A stretch of DNA of 43,407 nt from a virus (Duplodnaviria; Caudoviricetes). Below the pieces are notes generated by a model. The model was not told the DNA's origin and did no database searches. It saw nothing but the letters and a program-made list of their open reading frames with translations. A program made the translations under genes and the position numbers. Shown piece by piece: positions 313 to 43,407 of this stretch. Where the stretch lies: positions 1 to 43,407 of the IMG/VR virus record IMGVR_UViG_3300037424_001991. One strand, written 5' to 3'. Every line of letters begins with the position of its first letter. Positions within the stretch are counted from its first letter, which is position 1.

Positions 313-360
313 TGGAGCCAACGAGGAGAGTCGAACTCCTGACCTACTGATTACGAATCA
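313..360 (-). repeat. Left att site: 3' half of tRNA-Thr(CGT)
   Basis: 48-bp direct repeat of 43360-43407 with 4 mismatches. The minus strand reads TGATTCGTAATCA...GGAGTTCGACTCTCC...CCA. Adjacent to the integrase. Confidence 0.95.
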
Positions 361-434: not shown

Positions 435-1460
435 TCACTCCCGCCCCTTCCGCATTGCCGCAGTTTTGTCCTGGGCCTCCACCAGTCGCCTGGTTTGCAC
501 TTGTGTGTAGATGGTGGTGGTGCTGATGTTGGTGTGGCCCATGGCATTTTGTACCAGGCGGAGGTCGCCTGTTGCTTCGAGGGTGTCGGTGGCGTAGGCG
601 TGGCGGAATTTGTGGTGGGTCATTTTGTAGGGCAGGCCGGCTTTTTTTGAGGCGCTGGCCAGGAGGGCCTTGATGCTTTTCAGGGGCATGCCGGTTTTGG
701 GGTTGAGGAATACCCAGCCGGTGGCCTGGCGCCGGTCGAACATCAGGGCCCGGAACTCTTCGGGCAGGGGGAGCTGCAGCGGCCTGCCGCCTTTGAGGCG
801 CACGGTGATGATCCCCCGCTCCCAGTTGACCTCTTCCCAGCGGATCTGGGCGGTGGAGGTTATCCGGCCCCCGGTGGTCCACATCAGCAGGACCAGGGCC
901 TTTTTTACCGGGTCGGCGATATGCCGCAGCACGGCCAGCACCTCGGAGGGCATGGGCACTGTAGGCAGGGGCCGGTGGTATTTCGGGGTTTCTGGGCTGA
1001 AATGGAGCGGAGCGGCGTACCCCTGCTTGACCATCCATGTGATCATTCCCCGGAGGTAGTGGATCTCCTTCTGGTTGGTGCGTTTTTTGTCCGGCCGCAG
1101 GGCGACAAAGTCGGTGATATGCGCCGGCCTGATCTGAGCCACGGTGAGCTTGCCAAAGATCCGCATGATCTTGGGCATGGCCTGCTTGACATCGGCATGG
1201 GTGCTGGCGGCCCGGTTGAGTTGGTGCCAGCGCAGGTATTCGGGCAGGGTGGCGTCCAGAGGCAAGAATACAGTTTTGGCGCTCCCAGCCCGGTTGAGCC
1301 CCGCGTTTTCCCGGATCGATTGTTCGTAGAGCACTGCCTCTTCCCTGGTGCCCTCGAATTGTTTACGCCTGCGTGGTCCGTTGCGCCCCTCCGGATACCA
1401 GTCGATGCGCCAGACGGCTTTGCCAGGCTCTTTTGCGTGCCGAACGAATTTCATTGCCAT
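435..1460 (-). CDS. int: Phage integrase (tyrosine recombinase)
   Basis: TGGRI...K...HKFRH...MGH...TTIY catalytic pattern; N-terminal arm-binding-like region; next to att. Confidence 0.95.
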   Translation of the reverse strand: MAMKFVRHAKEPGKAVWRIDWYPEGRNGPRRRKQFEGTREEAVLYEQSIRENAGLNRAGSAKTVFLPLDATLPEYLRWHQLNRAASTHADVKQAMPKIMRIFGKLTVAQIRPAHITDFVALRPDKKRTNQKEIHYLRGMITWMVKQGYAAPLHFSPETPKYHRPLPTVPMPSEVLAVLRHIADPVKKALVLLMWTTGGRITSTAQIRWEEVNWERGIITVRLKGGRPLQLPLPEEFRALMFDRRQATGWVFLNPKTGMPLKSIKALLASASKKAGLPYKMTHHKFRHAYATDTLEATGDLRLVQNAMGHTNISTTTIYTQVQTRRLVEAQDKTAAMRKGRE

Positions 1461-8388: not shown

Positions 8389-8639
8389 TCGATCCAACAT
8401 GGGGATTAACCGCTGCCAGTGTGATCGGTGCGGGATTGAACGCCATCGGCCGCCGTGCCGGGTTCACCGTCTGGATATTCAGCAACATAGGCTGGGTGGC
8501 CACCAATGCCTCCCGCGGCCTTTGGCCACAGGCCGCGCTCTTTACCGCCTACCTCGGATTTTCCGTGGTGGGCTTTTTCATGTGGTCGCCGCCGGCGGCA
8601 CCCAAGGAACAACCCGAGGTTCATCCTGATGCCCTTTAA
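8385..8639 (+). CDS. Small PnuC-like membrane protein
   Basis: Three hydrophobic segments; GFTVWIFSNIGW motif. Confidence 0.6.
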   Translation: MIDPTWGLTAASVIGAGLNAIGRRAGFTVWIFSNIGWVATNASRGLWPQAALFTAYLGFSVVGFFMWSPPAAPKEQPEVHPDAL

Positions 8640-8970
8640 CTCTGGCATGCTTCTGATAGATGGCCACCGCTTCCCGCAAGCCGATCCCTACGGGCATCCG
8701 CCGGGCCTCCTCGAGGCCTCACCGGTGCAGACCGTTCCGGTGGCCGTACATTCTCACAGGGTTTCGCTCCCCGCCGCCCCCCCCCTCCCCCTTTCTAAAG
8801 AAAGCAGCCCAAAGGTCCATGACGGTCGCGGGTCCTTTGGGGCGATAAAAGCCACACGGGTCAGCGAGCCCCGATTGTTGCGTGCGGGGAAAATCCATGG
8901 GGGGGTGGAATCGTGGAATCGTGTGTCTGGGGTTGCGGCTCTTGCAGAAATGTTGGGGAGGGCAGCGTGA
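8629..8970 (+). CDS. Hypothetical protein
   Basis: Fills the gap between coupled neighbours; GAGG before ATG. Confidence 0.4.
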   Translation: MPFNSGMLLIDGHRFPQADPYGHPPGLLEASPVQTVPVAVHSHRVSLPAAPPLPLSKESSPKVHDGRGSFGAIKATRVSEPRLLRAGKIHGGVESWNRVSGVAALAEMLGRAA

Positions 8971-9245
8971 TTAATTGCCCGCACTGCAATGCGACAGGTG
9001 CCACTCGGCACGGATATACCGGGGATGGTCGGCAGCGGATGCTTTGCCAGTCACCTGATTGCGGCCGGGTTTTTGTTTCAATGACTCTGCGGCCCCGGGT
9101 GAGCCAAACCGCGAAAGAGATCGCCGGGGAGCTGGCAGCCCAGTTGGGTAAGCCGCTCACCGCCGCGATTCTGGCCAAGGCCACCGGACTCAGTGAGCGA
9201 ACAATTTACGCATTGAAAGCAAAACAGGGGGCGGCTGGTGTCTGA
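8967..9245 (+). CDS. Zinc-ribbon + HTH DNA-binding protein (InsA-like fold)
   Basis: CPHC...G...GRQRMLC...CGRVF, then ILAKATGLSERTIY HTH. Confidence 0.7.
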   Translation: MINCPHCNATGATRHGYTGDGRQRMLCQSPDCGRVFVSMTLRPRVSQTAKEIAGELAAQLGKPLTAAILAKATGLSERTIYALKAKQGAAGV

Positions 9246-11100: not shown

Positions 11101-12597
11101 ATGATGCAATTCTTTAATTTCCCTGGCTTTTCCGGATTTCGGGCCGGCGGCAAAAACGGTGGAGAGTACCATGGCAAATGTCCGGGCAATGGTCCAGACT
11201 GCATTTGCCTTGAGAAAAACAACAACCGGATGCGGGTCTGGCCGCTGCAGGGCAACACCGGTACCTTCAGCTGCCGCAAGTGCGGCCGGGGCGGCGACGC
11301 CATCCAGTGGCTAGACGATTTCGAGGGCAAGGGCTATCTCGAGGCCTGCGCCTATCTCGGCATCGAGCCCAAGACCCAGACCAAGGCCTCTGTTCCCGGG
11401 CGTTCCTCCAGGGCCCGGCCGGTGGCGGAGCAGGCCCGCAAGCTCACCATCCACCCCTTTTCCTCTCCGTCTGCGGTGTGGATCGAACATGCCGAGAAGT
11501 TCGTGGCCGGATGCCATGAGCAGCTGCTGGCCAACCAGGAGCAGCTCGACTATCTCGCGGCCAGGGGCATCAGCCGTGAGGCGGTTGTCGCCTGCCTCCT
11601 CGGCTGGAACCAGGCGGACACCTACCGCGCCCGGGAGAGCTGGGGCCTGCCCACCGAACTGCACGGACAAAGCGGCAAGGCCAAGCGGCTCTGGCTTCCG
11701 GCCGGCTTGGTCATCCCGGTGTACCGCAGCGGCGTGCTCCAGCGGGTGCGGGTACGGCGGCCGGAATCAGAACGGGCAAAGATGTGCGAAAACCTCAAAT
11801 ATTACCGGATCCCCGGCTCCTCCATCACCACCATGATCCTGGGCGACTCCACCCGGGCCTTCGCGGTAGTGGAGGCGGAGCTGGACGCCGTGGCCATCTT
11901 CTCCGCCGCCGCCGATCTGGTCTCCGCCGTCTCCATCGAAACCCTGGAGGGAAACCTGGACGCCGAGGCCTACGCGCTCCTTTCCGGATCCCTGGCCATT
12001 CTCGACGCCCTGGATGCGGACGCTCCGACCACTCCGGCCCTGCAGCGCGCCCTGGCAAAGTGGTCCGCAACCTTCGAGCGGCATCTGCGCTGGCCGGTGC
12101 CGATGGGCAAGGACCCGGGCGATGCGTTCAAGGCCGGGGTTGATCTCCGCGCCTGGGTCCTTGAAGGCCTACCCCCGGTATTCAAGATCGGTTCCGGACG
12201 TTCGGAGCTTCCCGGACAGTCCGCTTTTTCTGGTTTGTCGGAGGGGGGGGCGGAAATTGAGGCAGGCGCCGTGGAGGAAATGGCGGTGGAAGGCGTGGGG
12301 AGTGCCTTGGATGATGTGGAAAAACAGGAAACGCCCCCCACGGTTGTGGCGGTGGAAGACGATCTCGCCGAGCTGGCCGGGCTGCTGGAGAAAAATCCGG
12401 TCCAGGTGGTCAAGAGCCTCCGGGATGGATACGAGGTGCGCATCCAGTGGCAACCGTCCTGGCGCTCCGCCAACCAGGAGCTGGCCAACCGGATATCCGA
12501 TCTGGTGCATAAATCAGAGGCGGTTGCTGTGGCCATCCATCGGCATCCGGCCATAGTGATTCATGGCCGAAATCTTTTGATGGGGAAACAAATATGA
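11101..12597 (+). CDS. Zinc-finger DNA primase-like protein (Toprim)
   Basis: GEYHGKCP...FSCRKCGRGGDAIQW, VVEAELDA, DAD, GKDPGD. Confidence 0.85.
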   Translation: MMQFFNFPGFSGFRAGGKNGGEYHGKCPGNGPDCICLEKNNNRMRVWPLQGNTGTFSCRKCGRGGDAIQWLDDFEGKGYLEACAYLGIEPKTQTKASVPGRSSRARPVAEQARKLTIHPFSSPSAVWIEHAEKFVAGCHEQLLANQEQLDYLAARGISREAVVACLLGWNQADTYRARESWGLPTELHGQSGKAKRLWLPAGLVIPVYRSGVLQRVRVRRPESERAKMCENLKYYRIPGSSITTMILGDSTRAFAVVEAELDAVAIFSAAADLVSAVSIETLEGNLDAEAYALLSGSLAILDALDADAPTTPALQRALAKWSATFERHLRWPVPMGKDPGDAFKAGVDLRAWVLEGLPPVFKIGSGRSELPGQSAFSGLSEGGAEIEAGAVEEMAVEGVGSALDDVEKQETPPTVVAVEDDLAELAGLLEKNPVQVVKSLRDGYEVRIQWQPSWRSANQELANRISDLVHKSEAVAVAIHRHPAIVIHGRNLLMGKQI

Positions 12598-14390
12598 CTC
12601 CTGTCATCCTGAAATATCGTGAGCGCTTCCGCAAATCCCCGCAGCTCTCCATCAACTTCGGTGAGCTGGCCATTGATAATTTCGCCGGCGGCGGCGGAGC
12701 GTCAACCGGGATTGAGGCTGCCATCGGCCGTCCGGTGGATATCGCCATCAACCACGACCCAGTCGCCGTGGCCATGCACGAAGTCAATCACCCCGGCACG
12801 CGCCACTATCCCGCATCGGTGTGGGATGTTGACCCGCGCAAGGTTTGCGGGGGTCGTCCGGTTGGTATCGTCTGGTTCAGCCCGGATTGTAAGCACTATT
12901 CAAAGGCCCGCGGCGGAAAGCCGGTTGAAAAAAAGATCAGGAGTCTCGCCTGGGTGGCAGTGCGTTGGGCGGCTACGGTCAAGCCCAGGCTGATCGCCCT
13001 GGAAAATGTCGAGGAGTTTGTCACCTGGGGTCCGCTGGTTACAGATATAAACGGCGACTGCTACCCATGCAAGAAACGGAAGGGCCAAACGTTCCGGAGC
13101 TTCGTCAATGCGCTCCGCCGCCAGGGATATGAGGTGGACTGGAAAGAGTTGCGGGCCTGCGATTACGGTGCCCCGACCATCCGCAAGCGTTTCTTCCTGA
13201 TCGCCCGCTGCGATGGCCAGCCGATTGCCTGGCCGGAACCGACCCACGGAGATCCGAAAAGCGCTGCGGTAAAGAGCGGGAGGCTGAAGCCATGGCGGAC
13301 TGCCGCCGAGTGCATTGATTGGTCCCTGCCCTGCCCTTCGATATTCGAGCGCAAGAAGCCTTTGGCCGAGGCCACCATGCGGCGGATAGCCAAGGGGGTT
13401 ATGCGGTATGTGGTGGAGAGCCCAGAACCGTTCATCGTGCCGCTCACCCATCACGGAAAGCGGCAAAACCACAATATCAACGAACCATTCAAAACGGTGA
13501 CCGGCGCAAATCGCGGCGAACTGGCACTCGTAGCTCCAATTCTCACTGAACACGCCAATGCATCATCCCCGCGTTGTATGCCAATAGCGAGCCCGATGCG
13601 GACGCAATGTGCCCAGGTGAAAGGTGGACATTTTGCCATGGTTTCCGCCTTCCTCGCCAAGCATTACAGCGGGGTTGTCGGATCAGAATTAACCATGCCC
13701 ATCGGAACAGTGACCGGCATCGATCACCACTCCCTGGTTGCCGCCAGTGTGGTGCGCCATTTCGGAGAAAGCGTCGGCTCTTCTCCCGCCGAACCGGTCG
13801 GGACCATCACTGCCGGAGGCCTTGGCAAGACCGGGATTATCGCGGCGAATCTTGTCAGAAATTTCGGGAAAAGCTTCGGGGCCGATGCGGCAGGTCCGGC
13901 CTGTACCATCACCGGGAAAAGCAAAGACTCCCTGGTCACCTCTCACCTGGTCAAGCTGCGCGGCACCTGTAAGGACGGCCAGCCGGTAACCAAGCCGGCC
14001 CCAACCATCACCGCCAGCGGCACCCATGTCGGCGAGGTCCGGGCCTTCCTGATGAAATACTACGGGACGGATCAAGACCCCAAGCTGGTGGAGCCGCTCC
14101 ACACGGTGACCACGAAAGACCGCTTTGGCTTGGTTACCGTCAAGGGCGAGGAATACCGGATCGTAGATATAGGCATGCGGATGTTGTCTCCCCGGGAGCT
14201 GTACCGTGCCCAAGGATTCCCGGATAACTACATCATCGACCGCGATTCGCACGGCAAGCCCATCACCAAGACCGAACAGGTTGCCAAGTGCGGCAACAGT
14301 GTCTGCCCGCCAATCGCGGAGGCACTGGTGCGAGCGAACATGGCGGCGGTCGAGGTTATCGCTGTCGGAAACCCATCAGCCCGGGCTTAG
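12594..14390 (+). CDS. DNA (cytosine-5) methyltransferase
   Basis: DNFAGGGG (motif I), SPDC (IV), LENV (VI), RKRFF (VIII), GNSV (X). Confidence 0.93.
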   Translation: MTPVILKYRERFRKSPQLSINFGELAIDNFAGGGGASTGIEAAIGRPVDIAINHDPVAVAMHEVNHPGTRHYPASVWDVDPRKVCGGRPVGIVWFSPDCKHYSKARGGKPVEKKIRSLAWVAVRWAATVKPRLIALENVEEFVTWGPLVTDINGDCYPCKKRKGQTFRSFVNALRRQGYEVDWKELRACDYGAPTIRKRFFLIARCDGQPIAWPEPTHGDPKSAAVKSGRLKPWRTAAECIDWSLPCPSIFERKKPLAEATMRRIAKGVMRYVVESPEPFIVPLTHHGKRQNHNINEPFKTVTGANRGELALVAPILTEHANASSPRCMPIASPMRTQCAQVKGGHFAMVSAFLAKHYSGVVGSELTMPIGTVTGIDHHSLVAASVVRHFGESVGSSPAEPVGTITAGGLGKTGIIAANLVRNFGKSFGADAAGPACTITGKSKDSLVTSHLVKLRGTCKDGQPVTKPAPTITASGTHVGEVRAFLMKYYGTDQDPKLVEPLHTVTTKDRFGLVTVKGEEYRIVDIGMRMLSPRELYRAQGFPDNYIIDRDSHGKPITKTEQVAKCGNSVCPPIAEALVRANMAAVEVIAVGNPSARA

Positions 14391-14416
14391 GTAAGACAAC
14401 AAGAGGGGGAAAGGAT

Positions 14417-15601
14417 ATGACAATGCCAGCGGAGAAACGCATCAAAAAAGGGTTGTGGTGGGACCGCAACTGGCCAGTGCTGGAAGGCTGTACCCCGTGC
14501 TCGCCTGCCTGCGATAACTGCTTTGCCGCCGAGTATGCCCACCGTTTTGAGGGTTCGCTCCCGTATCTACGCGGGTTGACCACGCCGGAAGGCAAATGGA
14601 ATGGCACCGTGATCATGCGCCAGGATCAGCTTGACCTGCCTCTCAAGACCAAGAAGCCCACCGTCTGGTTTGTGGCCGAACGGTCCGATCTGTTCCATCC
14701 GTCGGTGCCGGTTGAATACCTGGACCGCATCTTTGCGGTGATGGCGATGTCTCCGCAGCACACCTTCATGGTGCTGACCAAGCGGCCGGAGCGGATGCGG
14801 GATTATTTCTCTGGGTGGGTCGGCGGCAGCAGGGAGGTAAAAACGTCCAGTCCGAATATTATGGGCGAATTGCGCTTGCCGTTTCCCAACCTCTGGCTTG
14901 GCGTCACCGCCGAAAACCAGGAGCAGGCAGACAAGCGCCAAAACTGTATTCTTGCCTCTGGACGCCACCCTGCCCGAATACCTGCGCTGGCACCAACTCA
15001 ACCGGGCCGCCAGCACCCATGCCGATGTCAAGCAGGCCATGCCCAAGATCATGCGGATCTTTGGCAAGCTCACCGTGGCTCAGATCAGGCCGGCGCATAT
15101 CACCGACTTTGTCGCCCTATAAAACTCGAGGATTTTGATAAAGAGCTTGGAGAGCCATATATTGGTCGAGACTATTTGCGTGTAATCCATGACCCAGTGC
15201 AGCAAGAAGATGTGCGCGGTCATATCGATTGGGTCATATGCGGTGGAGAATCAGGCAACAAGGCAAGGCCGGTGCATCCCGATTGGGTGCGCTCTCTCCG
15301 TGATCAATGCGCCCACGCCGGTGTCCCTTTCCTCTTTAAGCAGTGGGGGGAATGGATTGAGTGTAGCTCTGATTCGACCGCCGCAAGATCGACGCCTCAC
15401 AGTGGGTATTGTTCGCCGATTGCCTACACCCCATTCAAAGAGCACCACAACTCCTGGTGTTATCAAGATGGGCGATGTAAATCAGCCAGGACGCTTGAGG
15501 AGGAGGGATTTTGTTTTGTTGCCAAAGTGGGCAAGAAAGCAGCCGGGCGCCTCCTGGACGGCAAGGAACATCTGGAGTTCCCCCGGGCCTTCGCATGCTG
15601 A
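14417..15601 (+). CDS. Phage Gp37/Gp68 (DUF5131)-family protein, interrupted in frame by an integrase-derived segment
   Basis: GCTPCSPACDNCFA, SDLFH, LTKRPER, WLGVTAENQ, DWVICGGESG, FLFKQWG. The usual SxEPLLG segment is missing and replaced by 14934-15118. Confidence 0.85.
   Translation: MTMPAEKRIKKGLWWDRNWPVLEGCTPCSPACDNCFAAEYAHRFEGSLPYLRGLTTPEGKWNGTVIMRQDQLDLPLKTKKPTVWFVAERSDLFHPSVPVEYLDRIFAVMAMSPQHTFMVLTKRPERMRDYFSGWVGGSREVKTSSPNIMGELRLPFPNLWLGVTAENQEQADKRQNCILASGRHPARIPALAPTQPGRQHPCRCQAGHAQDHADLWQAHRGSDQAGAYHRLCRPIKLEDFDKELGEPYIGRDYLRVIHDPVQQEDVRGHIDWVICGGESGNKARPVHPDWVRSLRDQCAHAGVPFLFKQWGEWIECSSDSTAARSTPHSGYCSPIAYTPFKEHHNSWCYQDGRCKSARTLEEEGFCFVAKVGKKAAGRLLDGKEHLEFPRAFAC
14934..15118 (+). 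repeat. Exact inverted copy of integrase-internal segment 1099-1283
   Basis: 185 bp identical to the reverse complement of 1099-1283, checked base by base. Confidence 0.97.
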
Positions 15602-16944
15602 AAATTGAAACCTGGCCCCTGGCCAAGATCATCCCCGACGAAAACCATCTGCGCAAGAACAACCACGCGGTGGGCAAGGTGGCCGAGGCCATTGCCACCT
15701 TTGGTTTCCGTGTGCCCCTTCTGGTGCGCAGCCCAGGCGAGTTGGTGGATGGTGATCTCCGCTATAAGGCTGCCAAGCTGCTAAAGTTTACAGAAGTGCC
15801 GGTCATCCTGGTCGACGATCTTTCCGATGCCCAGATCCGCGCTTTCAAAATCTCCGTCAACCGCATGGCTGACTTGGCAGAGTGGGATGAGGAGCTGCTC
15901 GCTGCGGAGCTACAGCGCCTCATGGACGATGGCTTTCCGGTGGAGCTGACCGGCTTCGATATGGACGAAGTCGACAAGCTGCTGGCCGGCCTGGTCGACA
16001 ACGAAAAAGACCCGGACCTCGCCCCGCCGCCTCCGGCTAATCCGGTAACAGAGCGCGGTGATCTGTGGATCATCGGCGATCACCTTCTCCTGTGCGGAGA
16101 CTCCACCTCCAGCGAAGATTTCACCCTACTCATGGCTTGCGAGACCGCCGATCTGGTCTGGACCGATCCGCCATACAACGTCGATTACAAAGGCAAGGCA
16201 GGGAAGATCCTCAACGACAAGATGAAATCTTCGGAGTTTTCCGCCTTCATGTGCCAGGTGTTTTCCTGCCTGGCTGCGATCATGGCCCCAGGGGCGCCCA
16301 TCTATGTTGCCCATGCCGACACGGAACGGCTCAACGTGCAGGGGGCCATGAATACTGCCGGGCTCAAGGTGGCCTCCTGTCTGATCTGGCGCAAGAATCA
16401 GATGGTGCTGGGCCGCGCCGATTACCACTGGCAGCATGAACCGATTCTCTACGGCTGGAAGCCAGGGAGTAGGCACAGCTGGCACGGTGGCCGCACCAGA
16501 CGCACCGTGTTCGAGCTGGATGGAGATCCGCAGGCAATGCGGATTAGCGACACCCAGATCCAGGTCAAGGTCGGGGATGAATTCCTGCTGGTCTCCGGTG
16601 AAAACCTCAGCGTGGACCGGTACTGCTCAACCATTGCCTGCGAGGACAAGCCCCTGCGCAATGAAGACCATCCGACCATGAAGCCGGTGGCGCTGATCGA
16701 GCGGTTCCTCGCCAACAGCAGCCGCCCGGGCAATGTCGTGGTGGATGCCTTCGGCGGCTCCGGCTCCACCCTGATCGCTTGCGAGATCCGCAAACGCAAG
16801 GCCAGGCTTATGGAGCTCGACCCGCGCTTCTGCGATGTCATCGTGCGCCGCTGGCAGGAATATACCGGCGGAATTGCAACTTTGGCTGGCACGGATGCCA
16901 GTTTTAATCAGGTGAAGGAACTCCGAGGTAAGGTGGATGATTGA
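15595..16944 (+). CDS. ParB-like N-terminus + DNA N6-adenine/N4-cytosine methyltransferase
   Basis: FGFRVPLLV, TDPPYN, HPTMKP, DAFGGSGST. Confidence 0.92.
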   Translation: MLKIETWPLAKIIPDENHLRKNNHAVGKVAEAIATFGFRVPLLVRSPGELVDGDLRYKAAKLLKFTEVPVILVDDLSDAQIRAFKISVNRMADLAEWDEELLAAELQRLMDDGFPVELTGFDMDEVDKLLAGLVDNEKDPDLAPPPPANPVTERGDLWIIGDHLLLCGDSTSSEDFTLLMACETADLVWTDPPYNVDYKGKAGKILNDKMKSSEFSAFMCQVFSCLAAIMAPGAPIYVAHADTERLNVQGAMNTAGLKVASCLIWRKNQMVLGRADYHWQHEPILYGWKPGSRHSWHGGRTRRTVFELDGDPQAMRISDTQIQVKVGDEFLLVSGENLSVDRYCSTIACEDKPLRNEDHPTMKPVALIERFLANSSRPGNVVVDAFGGSGSTLIACEIRKRKARLMELDPRFCDVIVRRWQEYTGGIATLAGTDASFNQVKELRGKVDD

Positions 16945-17695
16945 ACGCCTCCCCAATGAAATTCTTGACGCAGCCAGCAAGCCAGAGCAGGTCGAATACA
17001 CGATCCACTACAAGGCAGTGCTCAAGGCTGCCAAGGCCTATGGCGATGAACCATCCACCGCCAGGAAGAAGATCTGGGAAGAGTCGAAACGGTCATTGTC
17101 CGACCAGGAAGCGCATCTGATGGAAAAATACGGAAAGGAACAGGCCGCGCCGGACACCTTTGCCACCCAACAGGATGTGCTGGTCTACCTCAAGGCCGGT
17201 GGCTATAAGATCGAGAAGTCCGCCCTCTCGAACCATGTGCGGACCCGGCTGCTGATTAAGAAACAAGGGGTTTTCCGCCGCCAGGATGTGGATAAATACG
17301 CGGATCTCCATCTGCAGTCCGGAGCCACAGGCCAAAAAGCTGCGGACAAAAAGCTGGCCGGGCTGCAGGAGCGCAAGCTCAAAGCCGAAACCGACCGCAC
17401 CGAGGAGCAGGCGCGAAAGGCCAAGCTCGAGCGGGAGGCCATGGAAGGGAAAATGCTCCCGAGGGCCGATGTCGAGCTGGAGCTTGCCGCCCGGGCGGTG
17501 GTCATCGACTCCGGGATCAGCGGCCTTATCCAATCGCATGCCGCCACCTGGATCGACCTGGTCGCCGGCGACCAGGCAAAGCTCCCGGATCTCACCGAGG
17601 CCATGGCCAACAACTTTCGCACCCTGCTCAACGAATACGCCACCACCGATATCATCCGGGTGGTGCTCAATCGCGGCGGAAAAAGCGATGATTGA
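16937..17695 (+). CDS. terS: Terminase small subunit (Nu1-like)
   Basis: HTH-like segment followed by coiled coil ERKLKAE...KAKLERE..EGKMLPRADV; lies between the methylase and (beyond the integron) terL. Confidence 0.7.
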   Translation: MIERLPNEILDAASKPEQVEYTIHYKAVLKAAKAYGDEPSTARKKIWEESKRSLSDQEAHLMEKYGKEQAAPDTFATQQDVLVYLKAGGYKIEKSALSNHVRTRLLIKKQGVFRRQDVDKYADLHLQSGATGQKAADKKLAGLQERKLKAETDRTEEQARKAKLEREAMEGKMLPRADVELELAARAVVIDSGISGLIQSHAATWIDLVAGDQAKLPDLTEAMANNFRTLLNEYATTDIIRVVLNRGGKSDD

Positions 17696-17774
17696 CCCGG
17701 CTAATAAATATGCCACCGGAACAGTAAACCATCCCACCGGAAAACCGTTAAAACTCACCGGACCGCGCCAATGA
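17688..17774 (+). CDS. 28-aa linker ORF coupling terS to the first cassette gene
   Basis: Starts in ATGATTGA overlapping the terS stop and ends in ATGA overlapping the next start. Confidence 0.4.
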   Translation: MIDPANKYATGTVNHPTGKPLKLTGPRQ

Positions 17775-17828
17775 AACAGAATAAAAAACGCACAGATCCT
17801 CGCGGTCCGGTGGAGAGCTTTGTTAGCC
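17739..17828 (-). other. attC: attC site 4 (distal; R' box degenerate)
   Basis: Minus strand: GGCTAAC AAAGC TCTCCACC GGACCGCG...CGCGGTCC GGTGAGT TTTAACG GTTTTCC. Confidence 0.8.
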
Positions 17829-18571
17829 GTTCCGGTGCTGTGGTTGCCTCATACGGCGGAGGAACAAACAGCACTGCCATGATTATTGAATGGGTTGCCC
17901 GTGGTCTGCGATTGGATGCTGTAGTTTTCGCGGACACCGGGGCCGAGAAGCCAGAGACGTATGCTTTTGTTGATCTGTTTTCTGGCTGGCTGGTGCAGCA
18001 TGGATACCCTGCGGTGGTGGTTGTTCGTAATGACGGGATGCACGGCAGCCTGGAACGGGAGTGCTTGACAAATGGCCGGTTGCCGTCCGCCACTTTTGGG
18101 TTTTCGTCCTGCTCGGACAAGTACAAGTTGAGGCCGTTTCGTAAGTGGCTAAAGACCTCGGGCCTGGAAAACGTAACTGTGCTCCTTGGTTTTGACGCTG
18201 GAGAGCCGGGCAGGAAGTCACGGGCGCTGAAATATGCCAGCGGGTATGACAAGGTTTTTCCGCTGATTGAATGGGAGTGGAGCCGTGAGCGGTGCATTGA
18301 GGCCATTGACAATGCTGGCTTACCCCGGCCAGGCAAGAGCGCCTGCTTTTTTTGCCCCAACACCAAGCCCCATGAAATCTTGAAACTCCAGGCCTACCAC
18401 CCGGATCTGGTCGAACGGGCGATTGCGATAGAAGACAACGCTAGCCTCCGCAGCATTAAGGGCCTGGGGCGGGCGTGGTCGTGGAAAGATTTTATCTGTG
18501 CCGATGACGCACAGCAAAAAATGTTTGGCAGCGTTTGCATGGGGCAACCATGTGGATGCTACGACGGCTAA
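17771..18571 (+). CDS. PAPS-reductase-family (PP-loop) protein; cassette 4 gene, inverted
   Basis: SYGGGTNST, FADTGAE, YKLRP, FPLIEW, KSACFFCP. Starts inside attC4; its TAA stop lies in the next attC R' box. Confidence 0.85.
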   Translation: MKQNKKRTDPRGPVESFVSRSGAVVASYGGGTNSTAMIIEWVARGLRLDAVVFADTGAEKPETYAFVDLFSGWLVQHGYPAVVVVRNDGMHGSLERECLTNGRLPSATFGFSSCSDKYKLRPFRKWLKTSGLENVTVLLGFDAGEPGRKSRALKYASGYDKVFPLIEWEWSRERCIEAIDNAGLPRPGKSACFFCPNTKPHEILKLQAYHPDLVERAIAIEDNASLRSIKGLGRAWSWKDFICADDAQQKMFGSVCMGQPCGCYDG

Positions 18572-18655
18572 CGTGGCTGGTCACTTGCCAGCCGACAAAC
18601 TTGAATAACAAAAACCGCCGCTCCAACCTGGTCAAGTGCAGTAGCTTTGTTGGGC
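18566..18655 (-). other. attC: attC site 3
   Basis: Minus strand: GCCCAAC AAAGCT ACTGCACT TGAC...GGCA AGTGACC AGCCAC GTTAGCC. Confidence 0.88.
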
Positions 18656-18873
18656 GGCCTACCGAGGAGGAGATAAATGCAAACCGTAACGAGGAATCAG
18701 GTGTTGATGATGGCGGCTACAATATTTGCTGGGGTTGTGGCGAACCCTTGTATGGCAGCTATGGTTGCGGACCAGTACGCAAGGCAAAACTTACTGCAAC
18801 AGACTTTGTGGGATGTGCAAAATATGTTCACATCATCCGGTATCGAAATCGTTGAAGGTTGAGGCCGCCCAAC
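18569..18873 (+). repeat. 305-bp exact direct repeat, copy A (cassette 3); copy B at 19249-19553
   Basis: Identical sequence whose boundaries fall on the AAC/GTT recombination triplets. Confidence 0.96.
18677..18862 (+). CDS. Hypothetical 61-aa protein, cassette 3
   Basis: GAGGAGG RBS; fits between attC sites; AATIFAGVVANP hydrophobic motif. Confidence 0.7.
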   Translation: MQTVTRNQVLMMAATIFAGVVANPCMAAMVADQYARQNLLQQTLWDVQNMFTSSGIEIVEG

Positions 18874-18954
18874 GCCAGAACTCAGCGGGCCCGGCTCAGG
18901 ACCAGCCGGAACGCCGCGCACGTTTACCGGGTCCGATGGAGGGATTGGTTAACT
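18867..18954 (-). other. attC: attC site 2
   Basis: Minus strand: AGTTAAC CAATC CCTCCATC GGACCCGG...CCGGGCCC GCTGAGT TCTGGC GTTGGGC. Confidence 0.9.
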
Positions 18955-18957
18955 GTT

Positions 18958-19251
18958 ATGACTGACGCCGACATAAAAACTGAAACGTCTGACTCTCTGG
19001 CCGACCTCAGAATGAGAATTGTGGCAGAGTTGGCCAGACGAACAAAAGAACCGACCCAAAGATGTTGGGTTGTCCGCCTCAGTGGTTGTGAGAGCGGTGC
19101 GACGTTTTTTAAAAAATATGAAGAGGCTAAGACGGAATTTATTGATGAGGTCGATTTTACCGTGCGGGACACAGGAAATAAATATTCGTTAGAACCGCTC
19201 GAGATACCCACCTCTGATTATAATTCTAGGCCAGATCGTTGGTACAGTTAA
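18958..19251 (+). CDS. Hypothetical 97-aa protein, cassette 2
   Basis: Low-GC ORF filling the cassette; ATG 3 nt after attC2; TAA stop within the next R' box. Confidence 0.75.
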   Translation: MTDADIKTETSDSLADLRMRIVAELARRTKEPTQRCWVVRLSGCESGATFFKKYEEAKTEFIDEVDFTVRDTGNKYSLEPLEIPTSDYNSRPDRWYS

Positions 19252-19335
19252 CGTGGCTGGTCACTTGCCAGCCGACAAACTTGAATAACAAAAACCGCCG
19301 CTCCAACCTGGTCAAGTGCAGTAGCTTTGTTGGGC
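19246..19335 (-). other. attC: attC site 1
   Basis: Same as attC3 but R' = GTTAACT, donated by the neighbouring cassette as expected. Confidence 0.88.
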
Positions 19336-19356
19336 GGCCTACCGAGGAGGAGATAA

Positions 19357-19542
19357 ATGCAAACCGTAACGAGGAATCAGGTGTTGATGATGGCGGCTAC
19401 AATATTTGCTGGGGTTGTGGCGAACCCTTGTATGGCAGCTATGGTTGCGGACCAGTACGCAAGGCAAAACTTACTGCAACAGACTTTGTGGGATGTGCAA
19501 AATATGTTCACATCATCCGGTATCGAAATCGTTGAAGGTTGA
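19357..19542 (+). CDS. Hypothetical 61-aa protein, cassette 1 (duplicate of cassette 3)
   Basis: Identical to 18677-18862. Confidence 0.7.
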   Translation: MQTVTRNQVLMMAATIFAGVVANPCMAAMVADQYARQNLLQQTLWDVQNMFTSSGIEIVEG

Positions 19543-19546
19543 GGCC

Positions 19547-19607
19547 GCCCAACCACCGTTATAAAGCCACCACGGCGGTCTAACCCACCAGCCGCCGAGG
19601 GCACAAC
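19547..19607 (-). other. attI: attI site
   Basis: Minus strand TTTATAA-CGGTG-GTTGGGC (L box, 5 nt, R box) with no attC hairpin; upstream GTTAGAC and GTTGTGC direct-repeat-like boxes; 5' of intI. Confidence 0.75.
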
Positions 19608-19640
19608 CACCCCGCAAACCTTAACCGGGAGGGCAAAACC

Positions 19641-20648
19641 ATGAATCAGCCAGCACAGCAAACACCGCCGCAATCAACGCCCGACAATAACCCCCCCCGG
19701 CTCAAGGACCAGGTCCACGCCGTCTGCCGTCGTCGCTATCTTTCCCTGCGCACTGAAAAGTCCTACTGGCACTGGATTGTCGCGTTCTGCCGCCACTACC
19801 AGAATCAAGTCCACCCACGCGACATGGGCGACCAGGAGGTCACCGACTACCTTACCCATCTGGCCGTCAAGCGCGGGGTGGCGGCGGCTACGCAAAACCA
19901 GGCATTCAACGCCTTGCTCTTCCTCTACCGCGACGTGCTGGAAAAACCCCTCGGCAACGTCGACGCCATGCGGGCCAAGCGCACCCGGCGTCTGCCGGTG
20001 GTCCTCTCCCGGGATGAGGTCAAGCGGCTGCTCGGCAAGATGACCGCCGTCCACTGGCTGATCGCGTCGCTCCTGTACGGCTCCGGCCTGCGGCTCATGG
20101 AGGCCATGCGCCTGCGGGTGCAGGATGTGGATTTCGACCGCCGGCAGATCATCGTCCGCATGGGCAAGGGCAACAAGGACCGCGTCGTCCCCCTGCCCAG
20201 CGCCATCGTCGGCGAGCTGCAGCGCCACCTTGCCGCGGTCGAACGGCTTCACCAGCAGGACCGGGCCGACAAGATTCCCTGCTCCATGGAGCCGTCCCTG
20301 GCCCGCAAGTTCCAGCTTGCCCCTTACTCCTGGGGATGGTTCTATGTTTTCCCGGCTCGGCAGCGGGCCATCGACCCGATCTCCGGCAAGCTCAAACGCC
20401 ACCACCTGCACGAGACCGCGATCCAGAAGGCGGTGCACGAGGCTGCCCGGGCGGCCAAACTCACCAAGCGCTGCGGCTGCCACACCCTGCGCCACAGTTT
20501 CGCCACCCACCTGCTGGAGGCTGGCCGGGATATTCGGACCATCCAGGAGATGCTGGGCCACAAGGATCTCAACACCACCATGATCTACACCCATGTGATG
20601 AGCCGGGAGGCCATTGTCAGCCCGTTGGATATGGTGATCGGCGCATGA
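19641..20648 (+). CDS. intI: Integron integrase
   Basis: SLRTEKSY, AATQNQAFNALLFLY, YGSGLRLME, GKGNKDR, IntI-specific insertion (LARKF...WGWFYVFPA...DP.SG...RHH), HTLRHSFATHLL, LGH, TTMIYTHV, SPLD. Confidence 0.97.
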   Translation: MNQPAQQTPPQSTPDNNPPRLKDQVHAVCRRRYLSLRTEKSYWHWIVAFCRHYQNQVHPRDMGDQEVTDYLTHLAVKRGVAAATQNQAFNALLFLYRDVLEKPLGNVDAMRAKRTRRLPVVLSRDEVKRLLGKMTAVHWLIASLLYGSGLRLMEAMRLRVQDVDFDRRQIIVRMGKGNKDRVVPLPSAIVGELQRHLAAVERLHQQDRADKIPCSMEPSLARKFQLAPYSWGWFYVFPARQRAIDPISGKLKRHHLHETAIQKAVHEAARAAKLTKRCGCHTLRHSFATHLLEAGRDIRTIQEMLGHKDLNTTMIYTHVMSREAIVSPLDMVIGA

Positions 20649-22705
20649 TCCCCCACGCCGCCCCGCGCCAGATAACCATCACCACCCCCCCTCCCTGGAT
20701 CACGCCGGAGATCGCCGCCCGTCTTTCCTCCGGTCATGAGTTCCGCTTCTCCAAACCGGAGCGCAAGGTCTGGCGCAAAAAGAAGCTGATCCCCGCTTCC
20801 GACTGGGCCGAGCGCAACTTTATCCTCACCGACGGCCCCCTCAAGGGTAGCCGCTGGCGGCGGGAGATGGCGCCCTGGTCGGCCGGGATGATGGACGCCT
20901 CGTTTTTCCCGTCGGTGCGGCGGAACATAAACTGCAAATCGGTCCAGTCGGCCGGCTCCACCTACATCAGCGCCTGCCTCTGCTACGCCGCCGACCGCCG
21001 CCCCGGCGACACCATGATCATCATGCCCAGCCAGGCAGCGGCCCGCAAAAGGATCCAGGACCGGTTGATCCCGATGATCGAGCAAAGCCCGGTCCTGGCC
21101 GACCTGCTCACCGGCAAGGAAGACGACAAGGCCTCCTGCCGGGTCAAGCTGACTCATATGCTGATCTACGCCGGATGGGCAGGCTCCCCAACATCCCTTG
21201 GCGACACCCCGGCAAAGTATGTCATCAAGGACGAAGCCGACAAATGGACCGAATCGGATACCGCAAACAACGAAGCCAGCAGCCATAAATTGGCGGACAA
21301 GCGGGTGACGACGTTCGAGAATTCTTACAAAATGTGGGACAACTCGACCCCCACCGTCGAGTCCGGCCACATCTGGCAGGCCCTCCTCACCGAGACCCAG
21401 ATCATCAGCTCGTTTTGGGTCCGCTGCCCGGACTGCGCTACCTACCAGGTCATGATCTCCCGGCAAATCGTCTGGGAAGGAGGCACCGAGGCCAACCCGG
21501 TCAAGGTCGAGGCCGAGCGCCTGGCCGGTTACACCTGCCACAATTGCGGCTCCACCTGGGATGATCACCGCCGCAATCTCGCCGCCCAGGCCGGGGAGTG
21601 GAGAGCCCTGCCCACCGAAGGCTGGGCCGACCGCCTCGAAAAACTCAAATCAGGCGATCACACCGCCTTTGACGGCGCCATTGAACTTTTTGAATACCTC
21701 CGCAGCCACCGCCCGGAAACCATCGGTTTCCACACCCCGGCCTGGTTTTCCCGCTATGTCAGCCTCAGCAAATGCGCCGCTGCGATCATCCGGGCCGCAA
21801 CCTTGGGCCTCGATGAGGTCAAGGATCTGGCCAACAACTTTGCCGCCGAGCCCTGGCGTCAGGTGATCCAGCAGACCGCCGAGTCTGATATCCTCATGGC
21901 CCGCTGCGCCCTGCCCCCGCAAACCGTTCCTGCCCAGGCCGTGGCCCTGGTCTGTTTCATCGACATGCAAAAACATGGTTTCTGGTTCTGCGTCCGGGCC
22001 TTTGCCCGCGATTTCACCTCCTGGAACATCCACCACGGCCAGCTGCCGGACTGGGCCGAGCTGGAGGCCCTGCTCTTCGAGACCAGCTACCCGGTGCAGG
22101 ACTCAGGCCGGACGATGCGGATCTGGCGGGCCGGGCTGGACACCGGCGGCGGCAAGGACAAGGATGCCGATATCAGCCGCACCGAGGAGGCCTATTTCTG
22201 GCTGCGGAAAAACGGCCAGGGGAGAGGCTGCCGGGTATGGGGCACCAAGGGCTCCAGCACCAGGATTGCCGGGGGCCGCTTGCGGGTGGGCAAGCCCCTG
22301 GACAAAACCCCCAGCGGCAAGCCGTTGCCCGGCGGCCTGCAGCTCATCTTCCTCGACACCGACCAGCTCAAAGATGCTTTTCACTACCGGTTAGGCCAGA
22401 CCCTCACCGGCGGCCCCCAGGCGGCCTGGCTGCACAGCGAAAGCGGCAAAGACTACGCCCGGCAGATCGCCGCCGAGAAAAAACAGAAAAACCGGCAGGG
22501 GGTTGATGAGTGGATCAAAACCAGCAAAGACAACCACTATCTCGACTGCGAGGTGGGGTGCCTGGCCCTGGCTGATCCGGAGTGGCCGGGCGGCGGGGTG
22601 AATTTGCTGCTGCCGCCGGCGCCGCCCCGGACCCCGGAGAAAAAAAGAGAAGAAGACGGTTTTTCCATCGGCAAATTCAACAGACCGGAGTGGCTAAACA
22701 GATGA
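20645..22705 (+). CDS. terL: Terminase large subunit (lambda GpA family)
   Basis: KSVQSAGS (deviant Walker A), VIKDEAD, STPT, CPDC/CHNC, IDMQ, DTGG, NHYLDCEV. ATG overlaps the intI stop. Confidence 0.92.
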   Translation: MIPHAAPRQITITTPPPWITPEIAARLSSGHEFRFSKPERKVWRKKKLIPASDWAERNFILTDGPLKGSRWRREMAPWSAGMMDASFFPSVRRNINCKSVQSAGSTYISACLCYAADRRPGDTMIIMPSQAAARKRIQDRLIPMIEQSPVLADLLTGKEDDKASCRVKLTHMLIYAGWAGSPTSLGDTPAKYVIKDEADKWTESDTANNEASSHKLADKRVTTFENSYKMWDNSTPTVESGHIWQALLTETQIISSFWVRCPDCATYQVMISRQIVWEGGTEANPVKVEAERLAGYTCHNCGSTWDDHRRNLAAQAGEWRALPTEGWADRLEKLKSGDHTAFDGAIELFEYLRSHRPETIGFHTPAWFSRYVSLSKCAAAIIRAATLGLDEVKDLANNFAAEPWRQVIQQTAESDILMARCALPPQTVPAQAVALVCFIDMQKHGFWFCVRAFARDFTSWNIHHGQLPDWAELEALLFETSYPVQDSGRTMRIWRAGLDTGGGKDKDADISRTEEAYFWLRKNGQGRGCRVWGTKGSSTRIAGGRLRVGKPLDKTPSGKPLPGGLQLIFLDTDQLKDAFHYRLGQTLTGGPQAAWLHSESGKDYARQIAAEKKQKNRQGVDEWIKTSKDNHYLDCEVGCLALADPEWPGGGVNLLLPPAPPRTPEKKREEDGFSIGKFNRPEWLNR

Positions 22706-22935
22706 GCAACCATGTCGCCGCAAAAACCCGTCGTGTATTCACCACCAAGGACGAGATTAAGGACTATCTCAATATCTCCGACATTTTGTTCAAAAAGTTC
22801 ATCAAATCCGGCATGCCTGCCCTTTTTATCGATGGCCGCTGGTACGCGCACGCCGACAACATCGACGGCTGGTTCCGCGCCACCACCATGGTCAGCCACA
22901 GAGGGATGGATCCGGAAGAATTGGCCTCAAAATAG
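22702..22935 (+). CDS. Small winged-HTH (Xis/MerR-like) protein, candidate late activator
   Basis: KDEIKDYLNIS...FIKSGMP...DGRW...IDGW pattern. Confidence 0.65.
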   Translation: MSNHVAAKTRRVFTTKDEIKDYLNISDILFKKFIKSGMPALFIDGRWYAHADNIDGWFRATTMVSHRGMDPEELASK

Positions 22936-22970
22936 CCCCCAAAACTTCATCTTAAAAAACCTGTCAAGAC

Positions 22971-23050
22971 CTTTTCACCCCTCGTTTACCCCCAGAACAC
23001 CCCCCGTTTACCCCCCGTTTCCAATATTTGCCAAAAACCCACGGTATAGT
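22971..23050 (+). promoter_or_regulatory. Candidate activator-dependent late promoter
   Basis: Tandem 11-bp-period repeats ending ACCCC, upstream of TATAGT, with no properly spaced -35. Confidence 0.5.
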
Positions 23051-23088
23051 GTGCTCAACAAAAAAGCACCACTACCAACGGGGCAGCA

Positions 23089-23304
23089 ATGGCAATCAAA
23101 ACCACCCTAGCGCAACTTGAGGAAGTCCAGGCCGCGATCAGCAAGGTCATGGGCGGCCAGGATGTGGTCATTGCCGGAAACCGGATGACCCGCGCCAACC
23201 TCAAGGAGTTGACCGAACGCGAGACCCTGCTCCTCGCCCGCTACAAGTCCGAGCAGGGCACCGGAGGCATCCATTTCTCCACCGGCCTGATGAGGCGCGA
23301 CTGA
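23089..23304 (+). CDS. Head-tail joining protein (gpW-like)
   Basis: LEEVQAAI...GQ...GNRMTRANLKEL; located before the portal. Confidence 0.75.
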   Translation: MAIKTTLAQLEEVQAAISKVMGGQDVVIAGNRMTRANLKELTERETLLLARYKSEQGTGGIHFSTGLMRRD

Positions 23305-24992
23305 TGCAGGGTGCTGCCAGCCAAAGTGAGATCTTCGCCACTGCGATGAATATCATCTCTTCTTCCCTGGGTCAGCCCATGGCGGCACAGCGTGCCCCCA
23401 GTGCCCCCATATTGTACGGCGCTAACAACCAGCCCCTTGCTCCCTCCATGCCGCAGTACGGCATCCAGCGTACCGCCGCCAAGCGCAGCGGCTCCATGAA
23501 AAAGTGGATTCCGCGCCGGGTGATCGGCCAGCAGCAGGAGGCCATCGAGCGCGAGGCCATGGTCGATCGCTCCACCGACCTGGTCAACAACGATCCCCAT
23601 GCCGCCGGGGTGGTGGATCTTTTCGCCACCACCGTCATCGGCCCCGGCCTCACCCCCCATTACAGCCTCGACCCGGAAGACCTCGGCCTCGATCAGGAGC
23701 AGGTCCGCATCGTCCAGCGGCAGATGCGCAACAATCTCCGCACCTGGTCCGGTTTCGCCGACGCTGGCGGCCGACTTACCTTCGGCGGTATCCAGCACCT
23801 GATCAAGCGTAACCTTTTCCAGTACGGCGAATATCTCGTTTTGCTGCCGATGCTTGCCGACACTGCCCGGCCCTTCTCTCTGGCCTGCCAGGTGCTCCAC
23901 CCCCTCCGGCTCAAGACCCCGAGCGATTTCCTCAACCGCCCCGACATCCGCGACGGGGTCGAGCTGGGCGAGTACGGCGAGGCCAAGGCCTACTGGATCA
24001 AAAAAACCGATGGCAGTCGGGGCCGGATGCTCAACGACACCTCCGCCAATTTCCTTCGTATCGAGGCCAAACAAGGCCACCGCTGGCGGGTGCTCCACGG
24101 TTTCATCCAAAAAGAGGCCGAGCAGGTCCGGGGAGTCCCGGAGTTCGCCCCCGGGATGAAGATGTTTCGCGACCTAAACGACTACCTCGACGCCGAGCTG
24201 GTTTCCAATATCGTCACCGCGGCCTTTTCGATGTTTGTCGAAACCACCGGCGACCAGTACAACCTGGCCAACAACCTGGCGACCTTCAGCGAAACCAGCA
24301 CCGTCAACGGCCAGACCAAAACCGACCGCTACCAGGAGATGCAGCCCGGTCAGATCATGTACGGCGGGCCCGGAGAAAAGCCGCACCCCATCTCCGCCGC
24401 CCGTCCAGGAGCCACCTTTGAGCCCTTCACCAAGGTGATCAAAAAGGCGATCGCCGTCTCCTGCAATATCCCCTACCCGGTTTTGTGGCGGGATGTCGAA
24501 GGGGTCAGCTTTGCCGGGTTCCGCTCGGCCATGCTCGAAGCCTGGCGGGTCTTTTCCTGCCACCGGCAATGGATGGGCAGCGGCTTCTGTCAGCCGGTCA
24601 ACACCATGCTCCAGGAGGAGGCCTTTCTCCGGGGCAAGCTCGACATCCCCGATTTTTATGAGCGGATGTGGGATCTCACCGCCGCCGAGTGGGTAGGCCC
24701 CCCCAAGGGCGATATCGAGCCGATCAAGGCGGTCCAGGCCGACCTGATGGCGATCAACGGCAATCTCAAAACCAGGCAACAGGCCATCGCCGAGCGCGGC
24801 GGCGACTACCGCCGGGTCTTTGACGATCTGGCGGTGGAAAAAGGGATCCTCAAGGAAAAAGACCTCTACGACGACCCGGCCAAAGCGCCGCCCCGCGCTG
24901 CAGCCGCCGATAAACCGGAAGACGAAGAGGGCGCCGCCATCCTGGCCCGCCTCGATGAGGTGGTGTCAATGATCGAGGAGCAACGCGAATGA
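23304..24992 (+). CDS. Portal protein, lambda family
   Basis: RSTDLVNNDPHA, DGVE...G...AYW, QVRGVP, SFAGFRSAMLE, IEPIK. Confidence 0.93.
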   Translation: MQGAASQSEIFATAMNIISSSLGQPMAAQRAPSAPILYGANNQPLAPSMPQYGIQRTAAKRSGSMKKWIPRRVIGQQQEAIEREAMVDRSTDLVNNDPHAAGVVDLFATTVIGPGLTPHYSLDPEDLGLDQEQVRIVQRQMRNNLRTWSGFADAGGRLTFGGIQHLIKRNLFQYGEYLVLLPMLADTARPFSLACQVLHPLRLKTPSDFLNRPDIRDGVELGEYGEAKAYWIKKTDGSRGRMLNDTSANFLRIEAKQGHRWRVLHGFIQKEAEQVRGVPEFAPGMKMFRDLNDYLDAELVSNIVTAAFSMFVETTGDQYNLANNLATFSETSTVNGQTKTDRYQEMQPGQIMYGGPGEKPHPISAARPGATFEPFTKVIKKAIAVSCNIPYPVLWRDVEGVSFAGFRSAMLEAWRVFSCHRQWMGSGFCQPVNTMLQEEAFLRGKLDIPDFYERMWDLTAAEWVGPPKGDIEPIKAVQADLMAINGNLKTRQQAIAERGGDYRRVFDDLAVEKGILKEKDLYDDPAKAPPRAAAADKPEDEEGAAILARLDEVVSMIEEQRE

Positions 24993-31418: not shown

Positions 31419-31518
31419 AGTGCGAAGTGCTGAGTGCTGAGTAAAAGAAAAGTGCCTCGTACTCGGCACTCAGCACTCGGAACTCAGCACTAAAAGAAAA
31501 GCACTCGAAAATCAGCAC
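31419..31518. repeat. Inverted heptamer array (AGTGCTG / CAGCACT)
   Basis: Core 31426-31495 matches 37038-37107 at 69 of 70 nt. Confidence 0.9.
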
Positions 31519-37107: not shown

Positions 37108-37124
37108 AAGAAAGGAGAAACACC

Positions 37125-41783: not shown

Positions 41784-41815
41784 GTCAGAAATAAAAAAAG
41801 GAGCAAAAAAAAACA

Positions 41816-43359: not shown

Positions 43360-43407
43360 TGGAGCCAACGAGCGGAGTCGAACCGCTGACCTACTGATTA
43401 CGAATCA
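43360..43407 (-). tRNA. tRNA-Thr(CGT), 3' part (right att site; 5' part presumably outside the window)
   Basis: Anticodon arm TGA-TTCGTAA-TCA, T arm AGCGG-TTCGACT-CCGCT, acceptor strand and CCA. Confidence 0.88.

Follow-up and report, generated by a model that had tools for sequence, protein, structure and literature searches.

An integron between the terminase genes of a temperate phage, with cassette genes inverted relative to their attC sites

We examined a 43,407-nt stretch of viral DNA (IMG/VR record IMGVR_UViG_3300037424_001991, positions 1 to 43,407; hereafter the window) and identified an integron between terS and terL, the genes for the small and large terminase subunits of a prophage. 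By every feature tested except expression driven by a cassette promoter (Pc), the locus at 17739-20648 is, judged from its sequence, a real and complete integron with an integrase gene (intI), an attI site and four attC-bounded gene cassettes. All four cassette open reading frames (ORFs) are inverted relative to their own attC sites and are co-directional with terS, intI and terL. We give a probability of about 0.8 to the reading that an integron at this position lets a temperate phage gain, lose and reorder accessory genes through IntI recombination. An earlier, sequence-only reading of the window had already proposed an integron between terS and terL, and a true IntI, the attI, four attC sites and both flanking genes were indeed identified; its main omission was the inversion, as it listed the four cassettes without remarking on the direction of their ORFs.

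Identification of the integron

The features of the locus are given below, where CM stands for covariance model and related loci are denoted by L numbers.

16937..17695, + strand: terminase small subunit, terS (phrog_57, E 2.3e-10)
17739..17828, + strand (bottom strand): attC A, distal; CM E 2.5e-10, outside the training set; R′ out of register
17771..18571, + strand: cassette 4 ORF, phosphoadenosine phosphosulfate (PAPS)-reductase-like, 266 aa (PF01507; phrog_424, E 2e-37; weak SspD)
18566..18655, + strand (bottom strand): attC B; CM match, in the training set; extra C and T in the right arm
18677..18862, + strand: cassette 3 ORF, 61 aa; strong ribosome-binding site; no family; one 92% homolog
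18867..18954, + strand (bottom strand): attC C; CM match; site body paired with other genes elsewhere
18958..19251, + strand: cassette 2 ORF, 97 aa; no Pfam match
19246..19335, + strand: attC D, a copy of attC B; CM match
19357..19542, + strand: cassette 1 ORF, identical copy of the cassette 3 ORF, attI-proximal; tandem order also in L001
19547..19600, - strand: attI; crossover GTT at 19551-19553; conserved in the window, L002, L004, L005, L007 and L024
19641..20648, + strand: integron integrase IntI, 335 aa (TIGR02249 above cut-off; 2A3V alignment)
20645..22705, + strand: terminase large subunit, terL, gpA type (PF05876, PF20454); start overlaps the intI stop

IntI scored 399 bits against TIGR02249 (cut-off 265) and stayed under the cut-offs of the XerC and XerD models; its clade is dominated by phages. 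Residues 28-330 aligned with the solved structure of Vibrio IntI4 (2A3V), the IntI insertion included, and the catalytic residues R151, K176, H281, R284, H307 and Y316 were all present and invariant across the 15 members of the clade described below, which confirmed the insertion and the catalytic set claimed earlier. The enzyme was 43-45% identical to class 1 and Vibrio enzymes. In a tblastn search of GenBank phages all matches were below 46% identity, namely the records of Qi 2023, a Salmonella record with intI1, two Acinetobacter phage contigs and Virus Rctr41k. This last record (KX853513, L263), from a bioreactor-enrichment phage, carries at 4680-9155 an IntI-like gene annotated as xerD, followed by a methyltransferase gene and small ORFs with two weak attC-like matches (E 0.16 and 0.61); it is a 'partial' record, a class left out by Qi et al. 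As to SOS control, an E. coli-type LexA box was unmatched in 19400-19700, and the host's own box may differ.

The intI stop and the terL start share ATGA, the overlap that had been pointed out before. No transposase or resistance family was found among the 45 ORFs scanned in the window and no inverted repeat pair was found bracketing the integron, in line with what had been stated, so that the marks of a transposon-borne mobile integron (transposase, terminal inverted repeats, resistance cassettes) are absent.

It is extremely improbable that the locus is a host integron misassembled into a phage contig through the 300-bp repeat. The unitig graph does break at the duplicated cassette, and sequencing run X1 and contig L001, the window's twin, possibly come from the same source as the window. 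On the other hand, one unitig of run X1 covers 15500-18598 and another 19249-23500, with zero differences and a flat depth of 24, so that single unitigs bridge both outer junctions (terS-attC A and attI-intI-terL), and these junctions recur in independent contigs that carry other cassettes. Misassembly is thereby refuted at both of them.

The attI site, attC sites and gene cassette array

AAC triplets at 17743, 18570, 18871, 19250 and 19551 divide the array into units of 827, 301, 379 and 301 bp, which agrees with the four cassettes reported earlier, and the ends of each cassette are perfectly complementary over 9-12 nt. The two 301-bp cassettes, formerly listed as separate, proved, in the sequence as assembled, to be one duplicated cassette (a 300-nt direct repeat). 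At the 5′ side of intI, where an attI-like site had been suggested, six clade members are alike up to the GTT and then continue into different first cassettes; this conservation followed by divergence fits an attI with different first cassettes.

A covariance model was built on 20 phage attC sites, 2 from the window and 18 from five related phages, and found exactly four sites in the 43-kb window, all within the array. The attC stems covary, with 57 cells changed on both sides against 20.4 in shuffles and lower values in slid controls, in a test that is favourably biased as the structure was drawn from the same 20 sequences. Complementary cassette ends of at least 7 bases were present in 81 of 105 viral cassettes, compared with 7 of 103 control pairs; the idea that such long complementary ends are a phage speciality was rejected, as bacterial cassettes show the same.

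Other searches were less informative. A hand-written attC detector, which was too strict, recovered one of the four window sites and gave as many matches as in shuffles, and under unconstrained folding the attC hairpin was not the lowest-energy form of sites B and D, which neither supports nor excludes it. No match within the array was found in Rfam and none to the array among GenBank phages, and a 15-nt attC B pattern gave chance matches, with only the twin contig aligning.

In attC A, the R′ box shows either a GGT triplet or a 7-nt spacer, while near-identical copies in L264 and L265 are intact; an R′ out of register would tend to lock the PAPS cassette in place. Translation of the PAPS gene probably starts inside the loop of this site, an arrangement seen in four copies. 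In L007 (7088-7290), a 203-nt attC-like site missed by the model also contains the start of the next ORF in its loop.

Orientation of the cassette genes

The bottom strand of an attC site has a 6-nt spacer and a 7-nt L′ at its AAC side, and an 8-nt L″ with an extra base and a 5-nt spacer at its GTT side. When this geometry was applied to 23 sites, pairing was better on the + strand than on the - strand (mean 5.1 vs 3.2 of 7), with several sites, window A, B and D included, one base out of register. The strand matched by the model, relative to intI, was the same in bacterial integrons (e.g. Vibrio L206 and Pseudoalteromonas L217), and thus, in sequence terms, the order of the window array is canonical: it runs away from the 5′ end of intI on the - strand.

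The direction of the genes was then compared with bacterial controls, which were the loci from a scan of 1/64 parts of bacterial genome contigs. The longest ORF between neighbouring sites lay on the bottom strand, lay on the top strand or was ambiguous in 66, 28 and 33 cases from 53 viral loci, as against 3, 62 and 19 from 24 bacterial loci, with single-hit bacterial loci and duplicate contigs omitted and one hand-picked long L007 site added. Similarly, of 146 viral sites, 99 had a bottom-strand and 42 a top-strand ORF stopping at the site, compared with 21 and 72 of 111 bacterial sites, a count that omits five viral loci with canonical-looking arrays (L129, L132, L137, L138 and L144). PHROG matches were obtained for 44 of 150 bottom-strand ORFs and for 1 of 132 top-strand ORFs, where the search took 150 of the 170 bottom-strand candidates (at most two per interval) and one top-strand ORF per interval.

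Flipped (top-strand) insertion of ordinary cassettes was rejected, because a flip would turn the attC around together with its gene. The attC sites are instead in canonical orientation to attI, and a gene keeps its left-hand site when it moves, as seen in the duplicated unit and in the PAPS cassette of L008, L264 and L265. Genes on the attC bottom strand are in an orientation that Pc cannot express, according to Nivina 2016 (PMC5027507), and no promoter match was found in the attI. In a separate phage IntI clade (L132, L137 and L138), the array lies downstream of intI and its ORFs are canonical, so that the cassette genes and intI again point the same way; the cargo there includes methyltransferases and a radical SAM gene.

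Related integrons in other phages

The IntI of the window has 14 relatives at 62-94% identity, followed by a gap to less than 60%, and these 14 form one fully supported clade. Two members carry the names of metagenome-assembled genomes (MAGs) of Thermodesulfobacteriota and Desulfurivibrionaceae, from which the shared hosts are probably of the Desulfobulbales type. Context was available for nine other loci of the clade, with twin contig L001 and duplicate L024 set aside, and all nine lie in packaging modules. terL directly follows intI in seven of them (L104, L106, L107, L006, L007, L008 and L023), while L105 has a terS-terL pair of another family and L025 a portal gene. Five clade loci show arrays, all different; the synteny of intI and terminase with changing cassettes, which had been proposed as a check, was thus found in other phages. 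In distant terminase relatives without an integron (L015-L017), terS abuts terL and there is no attC.

A wider IMG/VR scan gave at least 583 confirmed tyrosine-recombinase matches. Among the best 80 of these, a viral set that includes the window's twin and near-duplicate pairs, the IntI insertion was present in all; a terminase gene lay within 1.5 kb downstream of intI in 25 (21 by automatic flag, plus L118, L105, L145 and L159), and the next long gene was a phage integrase in 13 and a primase in 5. None of the bacterial-genome loci scanned for the same feature had a terminase within 1.5 kb downstream. The terminase junction, taken earlier as the site of the integron, is therefore the commonest one, but other phage integrons precede an integrase or a primase. 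In the 16 loci picked for a terL start near intI, the start codon overlaps the intI stop or lies within 4 nt of it. A second preferred site lies immediately before the integrase gene of the phage itself; intI occupies it, in the direction of that gene, in L133, L146, L149, L151, L153, L155, L160, L164, L170, L173, L175, L176 and L181. In a quick tree the viral IntIs fell into several phage-only clades with an unresolved backbone, so a single origin of all phage IntIs was not supported.

IntI and TerL identities hardly correlate (Spearman 0.19 over 22 loci, with pairs that are not independent), which argues that the platform is exchanged between phages. IntI and TerL identities were, respectively, 93% and 31% between the window and L023, 98% and 21% between L110 and L113, and 48% and 87% between L023 and L147.

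Three of the nine clade loci have lost or broken intI by three different deletions (L006:6759; L007:8001-8243, in frame; L008:3912), leaving orphan arrays. In L006, the attI and the 5′ end of intI were lost at an AAC triplet inside intI. This junction is as IntI itself would cut and may be read as an indirect sign of its activity, in line with the off-target GWT sites described by Loot et al. (10.1101/2022.09.11.507474). The retention of the intI 3′ end in broken alleles was rejected as a sign of coupling to terL, as these alleles were found by a C-terminal pattern. The sequence-only reading had taken the integron for a domesticated platform rather than a passenger. Synteny, the phage-dominated clade and phage-type cargo speak for this in the group as a whole, but not in each lineage, because intI has been deleted from three of the nine clade loci and is exchanged among terminases that are not related.

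We consider it very unlikely that this prophage once captured a piece of a host chromosomal integron and carries it as a passenger, which would be comparable to what Qi et al. 2023 described in Vibrio and Shewanella. Two cluster members do come from bacterial MAGs, phage integrons of this kind have been published (PMC9892861), and the generic-pattern scan in which no clade member was found covered 1/64 parts of the bacterial genome contigs. Nevertheless, the integron is central in the prophage, 17 kb and 23 kb away from the attachment (att) sites, and the same insertion site is used in phages whose TerL proteins are 31-69% alike. Bacterial arrays have the opposite ORF orientation, the cargo matches phage families, and every clade member with context lies in a packaging module.

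Cassette cargo and mobility

The PAPS-reductase-like ORF of cassette 4 ends with its stop codon in the AAC of the next site. Together with attC A, this cassette takes the last place in the window array, the first in L264 and an inner one in L265 and L008, and the similarity stops at the AAC triplets; L264 is the contig of L135, whose IntI sits in another clade. L267 carries the same ORF (89%) with a different attC. Conversely, L135 has a site 95% identical to the body of attC C that bears another gene, and contigs of runs X1 and X2 show this body with other flanks, which change again at AAC and GTT. Such reuse of an attC body was seen in nine pairs among 105 viral cassettes. One contig of run X1, 3.5x deeper than the prophage, carries a 93% copy of attC C (18871-18951) with other flanks, pointing to a more abundant element that shares the site pool.

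The 44 PHROG-matched cassette ORFs include 11 DNA methyltransferases, 4 PAPS-reductase-like and 2 radical SAM proteins, besides a DHH phosphoesterase, a Lar-like protein and DUF5131, in a count where intervals with a missed site may include non-cassette genes. No function was found by family search for the 61-aa and 97-aa ORFs of the window; the cassette 2 ORF gave a weak lead to DUF5448-like phage proteins, with an atlas score of 0.83, under the reliable bar. The same cargo families occur as ordinary genes, without attC, directly upstream of terS (window 12594-16944), and in L018 a radical SAM gene between terS and terL, with no site, is 60% identical to an L154 cassette. The idea that the methyltransferase and DUF5131 genes before terS had once been cassettes was rejected, as no attC remnant was found.

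A few cassettes differ in structure. L104 (1530-2080) and L008 (392-1036) have multi-ORF cassettes with an AT-rich leader and a small helix-turn-helix or ribbon-helix-helix gene, possibly self-regulated modules. In L002 (1140-1448), terS and the last attC are separated by a gene whose end coincides with an R box and which has, by eye, a decayed-looking site in front of it; this is possibly a cassette being fixed into the phage genome.

The intI-attI module could also be a selfish hitch-hiker that passes from phage to phage through gene junctions, kept there by its coupling to an essential gene and accompanied by real but mostly neutral or selfish cassettes of little use to the phage, which we regard as unlikely. 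In favour of this, clade members resemble one another far more in IntI than in the flanking TerL, intI is deleted in L006-L008, and most cassette ORFs are small with no known family, one cassette of the window being a duplicate. Against these stand the strong bias in orientation, by which the genes are readable with the phage operon, a cargo that repeats families kept as ordinary phage genes (window 12594-16944 and L018), and the PAPS ORF, which is intact in five other contigs at 86-94% identity.

Proposed mechanism

Under the reading that we prefer, of a phage integron used for the exchange of accessory genes, the reaction would be that of bacterial integrons, in which IntI joins the folded bottom strand of an attC to attI. 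The cassettes would be read not from Pc but by a phage transcript running from terS through to terL, which would explain why their genes are inverted. With intI on the packaging transcript and coupled to terL, shuffling would peak in lytic growth, which would supply single-stranded DNA and co-induced or co-infecting phages. The cargo of orphan methyltransferases and PAPS-reductase-like, radical SAM and Lar-like proteins would mainly counter host restriction, and the intI-attI module would move between phages of shared hosts by recombination at the terS-terL junction. If so, the newest cassette would be the most distant one from the promoter, a gradient opposite to that of Pc, and the whole array would be read since terL lies beyond it, which together with capsid size would keep arrays short.

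Several observations weigh against this reading. Of the viral cassettes, 28 scored as top-strand; L144, with the appearance of an ordinary array, accounts for 10. The downstream arrays of the phage clade of L132, L137 and L138 also have canonical ORFs, so that inversion is not universal. No promoter stands out in 15000-21000 (3 found vs 2.3 expected), so the case for read-through is one of gene order only. Broken intI genes in 3/9 clade loci and the degenerate attC A suggest that many arrays may be decaying. No family was found for 106 of the 150 bottom-strand cassette ORFs, so that a counter-defence role is drawn from a minority, and no excision joint was found in the contigs examined, where contigs drop rare variants.

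Perhaps temperate phages of many environmental bacteria run an integron system of their own with their own cassette pool and make the cassettes themselves, a broader proposal that we hold tentatively and with some doubt. The attC body would then be fitted before an ordinary phage gene, as the mirror image of bacterial cassettes, and IntI would be made with the terminase in lytic growth, so that progeny leave with reshuffled anti-restriction genes.

The same gene with and without attC, and the same attC on different genes, form a natural series for studies of how cassettes are made; if the broader proposal is true, the pairs of cassette and non-cassette genes, the one gene with two attCs and the one attC with different genes would make cassette genesis directly testable. 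Orphan attC clusters with methyltransferases in phages would be explained as arrays that lost intI, as in L006-L008, and a fast site-specific route would be added to phage mosaicism.

Other features of the prophage

The window corresponds to one whole prophage and, as predicted from its genes, has the att sites and the integrase, repressor, replication, head, tail and lysis genes expected of an intact temperate phage. Among the 45 ORFs scanned were an integrase, repressors, a primase, three DNA-modification genes, terminase, a lambda-type portal, protease, capsid, tail, endolysin and a reverse transcriptase.

313..360, strand not assigned: left attachment site, copy of a tRNA 3′ end (48-nt direct repeat, 92% identical to 43360-43407)
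435..1460, - strand: the prophage's own integrase, distinct from IntI (PF00589, phrog_1)
43360..43407, - strand: 3′ part of a host tRNA and right attachment site (Rfam RF00005; 5′ cut by the window end)

Since the prophage has its own integrase at 435-1460, IntI is not required for lysogeny. Four of the 48 bases in the left att copy do not match the tRNA end, which would be unusual in a freshly integrated prophage. On the host side of this site, an ORF at 1-201 is presumably cold-shock-protein-like. At the right end of the window, a reverse transcriptase of a family resembling those of diversity-generating retroelements (DGR-like; phrog_1423) lies at 41289-42928, for which no template/variable repeat pair was found; its homologs are also close to the integron in L108, L151 and L161/L165. 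The tail region has a 76-nt intergenic direct repeat (96%; 31425-31500 and 37037-37112) with an internal inverted repeat, which is not an attC by the covariance model.

Comparison with known systems

The integron of the window shares with bacterial integrons (class 1 and the sedentary Vibrio cholerae IntIA/IntI4, 2A3V) the IntI insertion and catalytic residues, the attI beside the 5′ end of intI, the divergent attC-bounded array, the complementary cassette ends (mean 8.1 vs 8.7 nt) and the reuse of attC bodies for different genes. It differs from them in lying within a phage operon, with the intI stop on the terL start and with bottom-strand ORFs, and in carrying phage cargo, not resistance or anti-phage genes. 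The same gene families are known from phage morons and orphan methyltransferase islands, where accessory genes lie between structural genes; here, unlike in morons, every such gene lies between recombination sites on which a resident recombinase would act.

Integrons had been described in the sequence-only reading as normally chromosomal or carried on transposons and plasmids, but phage integrons are not unprecedented. A survey of 10,705 phage genomes by Qi et al. 2023 (PMC9892861) yielded 3 complete integrons, 1 In0 and 17 clusters of attC sites lacking integrases (CALINs), and the authors treated the integron parts of phages as captured bacterial material with a host-type IntI; the complete integrons and the In0 were fragments of host integrons or a class 1 integron on a P1 phage-plasmid. 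They also remarked on methyltransferases among phage cassettes and showed recombination of phage attC sites by IntI1; their main text does not describe phage-specific IntI clades, a terminase-fixed position or inverted ORFs. In the literature searched, where subscription papers and bioRxiv supplements were mostly not covered, no description of terminase-linked or inverted-cassette phage integrons was found.

Integrons have been viewed as bacterial devices, and lately, according to one report (10.1101/2024.07.02.601686), as banks of anti-phage defence; here the same machinery, loaded with genes of apparent counter-defence type and probably rewired for reading by a phage operon, is seen on the phage side, in several IntI clades.

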